Positions 58,881 to 59,213 of a stretch of 64,000 nucleotides of DNA are shown piece by piece (the first letter of the stretch is position 1; each line of letters begins with the position of its first letter). This stretch comes from a phage. Under the pieces are notes generated by a model. That model saw nothing but the letters and a program-made list of their open reading frames with translations. It made no database searches and was not told where the DNA came from. Location: assembly GCA_036252695.1 (NCBI GenBank), contig GCA_036252695.1_4122.1; one strand, given 5' to 3'. Position numbers and translations under genes: made by a program.

Positions 58881-59213
58881 ATGCTAAATCTAAATATCCA
58901 AGGCAACGTTGATATCACTCCAGCAATCCAAGATGCTATTTACAATGAAGCAAAAAGTCTGGATAAGTACCGTACTTCTTCAGTACTAGACATTGGTGTT
59001 CATGTTAAGAAAGAGCATAAAACTCAATATGCTGTAACTTTAACTGCTGGTAGTAAATCAGTAACTGCTGATGATGCTGATTTGTATAAAGCAATTGTTG
59101 AATCTTTTGATAAGATGGAAACTGTATTCAGTAAAGACAAAAGCATTAAATTACACCGCCGAAACCATCCAGAACACCCAGTTCTTGATGATTTGACAGA
59201 AAACGAAGAGTAA
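58881..59213 (+). CDS. hpf: ribosome hibernation promoting factor (HPF/YfiA/RaiA) homolog
   Basis: 110 aa; MLNLNIQGNVDITPAIQDAIYNEAKSLDKY and the following segments are colinear with bacterial HPF as recalled; GGAAGG RBS. Confidence 0.65.
   Translation: MLNLNIQGNVDITPAIQDAIYNEAKSLDKYRTSSVLDIGVHVKKEHKTQYAVTLTAGSKSVTADDADLYKAIVESFDKMETVFSKDKSIKLHRRNHPEHPVLDDLTENEE

Follow-up and report, generated by a model that had tools for sequence, protein, structure and literature searches.

Gp425, a protein of an Escherichia jumbo phage, is almost certainly a member of the HPF/RaiA (Ribosomal_S30AE) family; its scores against the models of that family indicate a divergent, single-domain member and not an orthologue of either enterobacterial RaiA or enterobacterial HPF. 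The identity of the gene is already known and is not a new discovery, since its counterpart in phage 121Q, gp533, carries the RefSeq name "HPF/RaiA family ribosome-associated protein", the paper on phage Sharanji includes the HPF-like protein in its list of translation factors but does not analyse it further (PMC11895373), and phage HPFs have been in the literature since 2019, when HPF genes were reported in rV5-like coliphages and in the Cronobacter jumbo phage GAP32 (Mizuno et al. 2019, PMC6375957). The counterpart in phAPEC6, gp292c, has been named "ribosome-associated inhibitor A". Functional work on gp425 of the Asteriusviruses, or on any phage HPF beyond the study of Mizuno et al., was not found in the literature. 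The features added here are a C-terminal tail of the RaiA type, the loss of the basic residues at the positions of R83 and K91, a conserved jumbo-phage gene module and a mosaic core domain.

Source of the DNA

The window, by which we mean the whole stretch of 64,000 nucleotides that was analysed, had been taken as phage DNA in an earlier, sequence-only reading, and comparison with phage genomes bears this out. Across the 4 kb tested (57000-61000), the sequence matches Escherichia phages vB_EcoM_G17 and Sharanji with 100% identity and phage 121Q with 98%; all three are jumbo myoviruses of the genus Asteriusvirus, about 350-370 kb in size. The HPF-like gene is gp425 of G17/Sharanji, and this name is used throughout. 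All open reading frames of at least 200 residues in the window (1-64000) lie on the plus strand; no tRNA or Rfam family was found in it, and likewise no structured RNA near the HPF-like gene. In the upstream part of the window, the Sharanji counterpart is annotated with RNA ligase, zeta toxin, phosphatases, DNA ligase and ClpP, and also with tRNA adenosine deaminase, sirtuin, PhoH, NrdD/NrdG and acyl carrier protein. Positions of the features discussed below are collected in Table 1.

Table 1. Features of the gp425 region, in window coordinates
Feature	Position	Strand	Basis
2H-phosphoesterase-like gene, 136 aa	57358..57768	+	PF22547 (2H-SAK), 25.8 bits, slightly below its gathering score (27)
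Candidate promoters, two overlapping sigma-70-like matches	57776..57820	+	Consensus scan
LysM + GH24 lysozyme gene	57937..58863	+	Pfam Phage_lysozyme 45 bits, LysM 22.5 bits
Shine-Dalgarno site AGGAAGGTGA	58868-58877	+	Sequence; RBS annotated there in the UE-S1 record
gp425, HPF-like open reading frame, 110 aa	58881-59213	+	Open reading frame list and sequence; ATG start, TAA at 59211-59213
HPF/RaiA-like folded domain, residues 1-87	58881..59141	+	PF02482, AF2 pLDDT 74-88, Foldseek
C-terminal tail, residues 88-110 (SIKLHRRNHPEHPVLDDLTENEE), and stop	59142..59213	+	Alignments, pLDDT <50
Intrinsic terminator	59222..59252	+	11-bp stem, 5-nt loop, TTTTCTT run
CCA-adding tRNA nucleotidyltransferase gene	60813-61925	+	Pfam
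NUDIX hydrolase gene	62036-62434	+	Pfam
Glutaredoxin gene	62436-62684	+	Pfam

Family assignment and predicted fold

A search with the HPF/RaiA profile had been set beforehand as the test on which the family assignment could fail. Pfam PF02482 (Ribosomal_S30AE) matched above threshold, scoring 41 bits (E 3.3e-10) against a gathering score of 23.7, with residues 5-87 of gp425 aligned to model positions 2-84 of 88, and both fold and colinearity agree with this match. The protein had been described as colinear with bacterial HPF/YfiA, starting from a conserved N-terminus; the alignment is colinear through both helices, and the N-terminal MLNLNIQGNVDIT aligns with MQLNITGNNVEIT of E. coli HPF and with MTMNITSKQMEIT of RaiA. 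When all PDB chains were searched with phmmer, the top 17 matches consisted of HPF, pY and RaiA only, the best being HPF of T. thermophilus (4.9e-7). An AF2 model computed from an alignment of the 13 family members reached a mean pLDDT of 75; its elements follow the order E-H-E-E-E-H, with a strand at residues 2-8, a helix at 14-30, strands at 36-44, 50-56 and 59-65, and a second helix at 68-86. Compared with the PDB by Foldseek, this model gave 38 top matches that were all ribosome hibernation factors, mostly HPF/RaiA/pY together with two RafH chains, with target-normalised TM values reaching 0.81; the next match followed at E 1.4e-2.

Three other assignments were considered and rejected. The profile match, the predicted fold, conservation and the dN/dS values given below together rule out a chance open reading frame or mis-called gene; the Pfam match to Dodecin reached 19.5 bits, less than its cut-off of 22.5, and covered residues 12-55 only; and gp425 had no PADLOC match that would mark it as a known defence-related protein.

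Models specific for subfamilies were not reached. The NCBIfam HPF/YfiA equivalog TIGR00741 scored 36.3 bits, below its cut-off of 40.9; NF007654 (RaiA) scored 19.3 bits, far below an equivalog cut-off of 158, so that gp425 is not an orthologue of enterobacterial RaiA; and the model for short HPF (NF007780, PRK10470) scored 23.2 bits, against a cut-off of 125. The best pairwise match in the host was E. coli HPF, at 28% identity and 31.6 bits, against 25% identity for E. coli RaiA; the scores place gp425 in neither subfamily. In the PHROG collection gp425 fell into its own family, phrog_34864, with 208.9 bits, and scored 27.4 bits with the rV5-type phrog_8990. The dimerisation domain of long HPFs (~60 residues) is absent, as the chain stops after residue 110, the tail is predicted to be disordered and Pfam gives no second domain; gp425 would therefore be unable to pair ribosomes by itself.

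The C-terminal tail and the predicted ribosome-contacting residues

From residue 88 onward, gp425 is predicted to be disordered. Seven residues of this tail (K90, L91, R93, R94, D104, E109 and E110) are nonetheless invariant or nearly so in the 13-member family. R93-R94 align with R95-R96 of RaiA, the Arg-Arg motif being placed five residues after helix 2, and both proteins have acidic C-terminal ends (ENEE in gp425, EVEEE in RaiA). The tail has the features of the RaiA type, namely about 20 residues past helix 2, an Arg pair and an acidic end. In YfiA, R95/R96 contact 16S rRNA and uS7, with the extreme tail unresolved (10.1101/2025.10.07.680626), and the tail prevents the binding of RMF (PMC7764885).

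In order to compare the residues that contact the ribosome, the 13 family members were aligned with 5 other jumbo-phage relatives, 57 diverse cellular homologues and both E. coli proteins; positions are given in E. coli numbering. K80, R83, K87 and K91 are the four ribosome-contacting residues that are identical in E. coli HPF and YfiA, and R83, which contacts m4C1402, has been described as the single essential arginine for that contact (10.1101/2025.10.07.680626). Five positions that usually carry lysine or arginine in the 57 cellular homologues lack a basic residue in the phage family, three of them in helix 1: position 17 (K/R in 77% of the homologues) is H/N/Q, position 23 (82%) is mostly E, also G/D/S/C, position 26 (79%) is mostly A/C/V/S, also T/H/Q, and never K/R, position 83 (61%) is T, except for two members with V or K, so that a single member has lysine there, and position 91 (72%) is I/V. 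Kept in the phage family are K29, an aromatic residue at 30 (Y30), K80, K87 and K89; among the cellular homologues, K/R is found at position 80 in 91% and at position 87 in 81%. The basic track of helix 2 is accordingly split, K80 and K87 being retained and R83 and K91 not. The 13-member alignment also contains an invariant patch specific to the family, VHVKKEHKTQY.

Judged from these alignments, the ribosome-binding surface of gp425 would be retained only in part, and binding is probably weaker than that of the host factors, or differently tuned, because R83, K91 and three basic residues of helix 1 are missing. E. coli RaiA (YfiA, protein Y; 113 aa) is of the same fold and length class as gp425 and shares with it the flexible C-terminal extension with its Arg-Arg and acidic end, together with K29, the aromatic residue at 30, K80 and K87; in contrast to RaiA, gp425 has no basic residue at the positions of R17, R23, K26, R83 and K91, its beta2-beta3 loop is three residues shorter, and it is encoded by a phage. 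The short HPF of E. coli (YhbH; 95 aa) has the N-terminal motif and K89 in common with gp425 but is tailless and forms 100S dimers with RMF, whereas gp425 has a conserved tail of 22 residues.

Expression signals and the adjacent lysozyme gene

The gene had also been credited with its own ribosome-binding site and a strong terminator, and both are present. The GAAGG core of the Shine-Dalgarno site AGGAAGGTGA lies 6 nt 5' of the gp425 ATG. Downstream of the stop codon, a hairpin of the form AAAGGGACAGA-TTAAT-TCTGTCCCTTT at 59222-59248 (stem arms 59222-59232/59238-59248) runs into TTTTCTT; folded as RNA, this region has a free energy of -19.2 kcal/mol, with z = -3.47 against dinucleotide shuffles. 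The hairpin was also picked up in a pattern scan, but assigned there to the minus strand; the G17 and UE-S1 records annotate the hairpin 3' of gp425 as a terminator.

The gene that precedes gp425 encodes a lysozyme, whose counterparts are gp426 of Sharanji, gp532 of 121Q and gp293 of phAPEC6. Because only 17 nt separate the lysozyme stop from the gp425 start, and neither a hairpin nor a terminator lies between them, the two genes are probably co-transcribed as a two-gene unit. The only sizeable gap upstream, the 168 nt at 57769-57936 in front of the lysozyme gene, holds two sigma-70-like matches, TTTACA-17-TAAAAT and TTGTAA-16-TATACT, the latter with TG; such matches are no more numerous in the window than in shuffled sequence, and we infer from the sequence only a candidate start of the lysozyme-gp425 transcription unit at this place. 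A T4-type late promoter was considered and rejected, as TATAAATA is under-represented in the window and absent near gp425.

The lysozyme gene itself begins with a TTG codon, preceded by a strong AAGGAGG site, and the N-terminus of its product contains a hydrophobic stretch that could be a signal-anchor. The text of the phAPEC6 paper states that lysozyme gp293 was undetected in the virion, and the lysozyme may therefore be the endolysin. If it is, gp425 would be a late gene.

Selection, virion content and apparent allele exchange

Pairwise Nei-Gojobori comparison of seven Asteriusvirus alleles gave dN/dS values of 0.11-0.27, with dS of up to 1.8; on these values, gp425 is intact and under purifying selection. 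The phAPEC6 counterpart, gp292c, is absent from the list of 62 proteins identified by mass spectrometry of the virion, where the table passes from gp280c to gp306c without it. A factor that is packaged in the virion and injected is thus unsupported at the sensitivity of the phAPEC6 virion analysis, and gp425, being undetected in virions, would need to be synthesised in the host after infection.

Divergence between alleles is concentrated in the core of the gene, which forms a mosaic patch with sharp boundaries. Relative to 121Q, the core (58881-59144) is 81.8% identical at the nucleotide level, mostly through synonymous changes, and the flanks are 99-100% identical; the tail-coding part (59145-59213) is 100% identical, so that the tail is invariant between alleles. 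Relative to UE-S1 the pattern is reversed, the lysozyme gene being 81.8% and the HPF-like gene 99.2% identical. The two core alleles seem, from these comparisons, to reassort by recombination among Asteriusviruses, independently of the flanks.

Salmonella Asteriusvirus records of the SD-* series contain internally deleted or partial HPF-like open reading frames; in Salmonella phage SD-15_S21, for example, the frame (2501-2725) encodes 74 residues. In the SD-* records neighbouring genes are also fragmented, and the genomes are 20-40 kb shorter. The short copies could represent real decay, the gene then being dispensable, or poor assembly quality.

Relatives and gene order in other jumbo phages

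A HMMER search of 1.84 billion representative proteins with the family profile returned 63 proteins at E <=1e-3. The nearest matches outside Asteriusvirus (P0016-P0019 and P0021; E 1e-13 to 1e-7) all came from phages: P0016 has 73% identity with the protein named "ribosome-associated inhibitor" in Salmonella phages Munch, 7t3 and SE_PL and in Klebsiella phage fENko-Kae01, P0019 clusters with a protein from a 351-kb contig, and the others are nearest to the Munch-like group and to Erwinia phage Hallingskeid. A word-index homologue search yielded close phage relatives only. One further match was rejected as a false positive: a 1605-residue protein (P0015) with 29 near-identical repeats of ~53 residues owed its 133 bits to summed weak repeat matches; it is probably an artefact, of assembly or of its repeats, with no relation to HPF.

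The order lysozyme, HPF-like gene, 0-5 small open reading frames, CCA-adding enzyme, NUDIX hydrolase and glutaredoxin recurs on the contigs of P0016 (Munch-like) and of P0017 and P0018 (two metagenomic lineages); in all, five groups of RaK2-like jumbo phages share it. Xanthomonas phage XaC1 has matching annotations for the HPF-like gene, the CCA-adding enzyme, the NUDIX hydrolase and glutaredoxin, the gene in the lysozyme position being unannotated, and the region of Hallingskeid that was examined contains the HPF-like gene and a tRNA nucleotidyltransferase gene. The 2H-phosphoesterase-like family takes the same relative position, 5' of the lysozyme gene, in related phage contigs. Among the neighbours in the window there is also a weak Macro-domain match; together with the 2H-like protein, the CCA-adding enzyme and the NUDIX hydrolase, it suggests a neighbourhood concerned with RNA-end or tRNA maintenance. 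Between gp425 and the CCA-adding enzyme gene lie three tandem paralogues (59267-59662, 59858-60268 and 60255-60677), of which the second and third match each other (BLASTP 9e-12) and the first shows a weak relationship (0.003). They had no Pfam or PADLOC match, and other jumbo-phage lineages lack them or have different small open reading frames in their place.

The other jumbo-phage copies compared, those of Munch/7t3/SE_PL, fENko-Kae01, Hallingskeid, XaC1 and Yersinia phage fHe-Yen9-04, are 23-49% identical to gp425 and share with it the tail motif K-x-L-x-[KR]-R, the acidic end and the loss of R83; K26 is retained in most of the other lineages in the alignment and K91 in several of them, whereas Asteriusvirus has lost both. 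Yersinia jumbo phages fHe-Yen9-03/04 both carry an HPF-like gene; the fHe-Yen9 copies and that of GAP32, reported by Mizuno et al., are putative orthologues of gp425. Sequence relationships and gene order together place gp425 in an old clade, passed on vertically among RaK2-like jumbo phages. A recent acquisition from the E. coli host was rejected, given 25-28% identity to host HPF/RaiA and synteny across phages of Salmonella, Klebsiella, Erwinia and Xanthomonas.

Phage records that match E. coli HPF number about 130 and belong mostly to the Vequintavirinae. The rV5-like HPF of that group also contains PF02482, is ~105 residues long, is encoded by large E. coli myoviruses and is annotated as a ribosome hibernation factor; it forms a separate family, with PHROG scores and genomic context that differ from those of gp425, and it keeps R83 and loses K80, the reverse of the gp425 family. 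When rV5 HPF was examined directly, the protein was expressed but was absent from the 70S and 100S fractions, and levels of 100S ribosomes were unchanged (Mizuno et al. 2019, PMC6375957).

Discussion

On the evidence of the conserved fold, the tail and the contacts that are kept, we give a slight edge to the view that gp425 binds ribosomes at all. The specific reading that we prefer, a role analogous to that of RaiA with weaker contacts, stands at about even chances. Factors of this family sit between the head and body of the 30S subunit, where they overlap the A and P sites. Gp425 would likewise bind the 30S decoding region of host 70S ribosomes, after the manner of RaiA, and its tail, by analogy, would occupy the RMF site and so leave 70S monomers in place of 100S dimers. 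Idle host ribosomes might then be held protected and quickly re-usable, or host HPF, RMF and RaiA might be outcompeted, with gp425 probably binding more weakly than the host factors or with different tuning. The earlier proposal that a phage copy could shut down or protect host ribosomes is weakened on two counts: R83, K91 and three basic residues of helix 1 are missing, and the rV5 HPF was not recovered in ribosome fractions.

The same pattern of lost and kept contacts bears on several other readings. It fits a lower-affinity binder, and gp425 might accordingly be a competitor that acts against hibernation, occupying the HPF/RaiA site weakly or transiently, displacing host HPF/RaiA, blocking RMF and keeping the ribosomes of starved or defence-arrested cells free for phage mRNAs while translation goes uninhibited. 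A RaiA-like tail could exclude RMF, the phages also carry an IF3 homologue that could clear the site, and competition of viral HPF with its cellular homologues was hypothesised by Mizuno et al. (PMC6375957); yet a weak binder would have to prevail over abundant host factors, and we regard this reading as unlikely. The losses might instead mean that the fold has been put to another use, binding some other RNA or protein in the RNA-repair and tRNA-maintenance neighbourhood and no longer binding the ribosome. Five conserved basic positions are gone, R83 is missing in all jumbo-phage lineages aligned, the patch VHVKKEHKTQY is invariant and family-specific, gp425 scores below the NCBIfam equivalog cut-offs, and the rV5 result (PMC6375957) would be in keeping. 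However, half of the contact track has been conserved, as have an aromatic side chain at position 30 and the RaiA-type Arg-Arg motif, at an overall identity of about 30%, all structural neighbours are ribosome hibernation factors, and only 61% of cellular homologues have R/K at position 83, so that its loss is not disqualifying; neofunctionalisation of this kind seems improbable to us.

Gp425 might also act in bulk, blocking the A and P sites so as to stop host translation, or covering the 16S decoding centre (h44/h45) against defence or toxin nucleases. Neighbours that suggest repair of RNA damage, namely the 2H-like protein, the CCA-adding enzyme and the RNA ligase of the Sharanji counterpart, are compatible with such a shield. 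A general inhibitor would, however, block phage translation too unless it were selectively released, gp425 is apparently coupled to the lysozyme gene and not to an early host-takeover cluster, and no known defence-related model in PADLOC was matched; we consider a function in shut-off or shielding very unlikely. A broader proposal draws on several of these elements: a vertically kept RaiA-like factor without the m4C1402 arginine might serve as an anti-hibernation or anti-defence device that holds ribosomes as 70S monomers, excludes RMF/HPF or shields the decoding centre, and is cleared by the phage IF3 such that phage mRNAs are favoured. We put this forward as a speculation with rather poor odds.

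As a database finding gp425 is ordinary, the gene being already correctly named in RefSeq. Phage HPF/RaiA genes are common, though the one published direct test of a phage HPF, that of rV5, was negative. Hibernation decides protein synthesis in starved or stressed bacteria, and phages must translate in such cells. If ribosome binding by the RaiA-like gp425 proves true, it would show a virus manipulating or pre-empting the hibernation of its host, and a naturally weakened form of RaiA would be at hand for working out which contacts matter.
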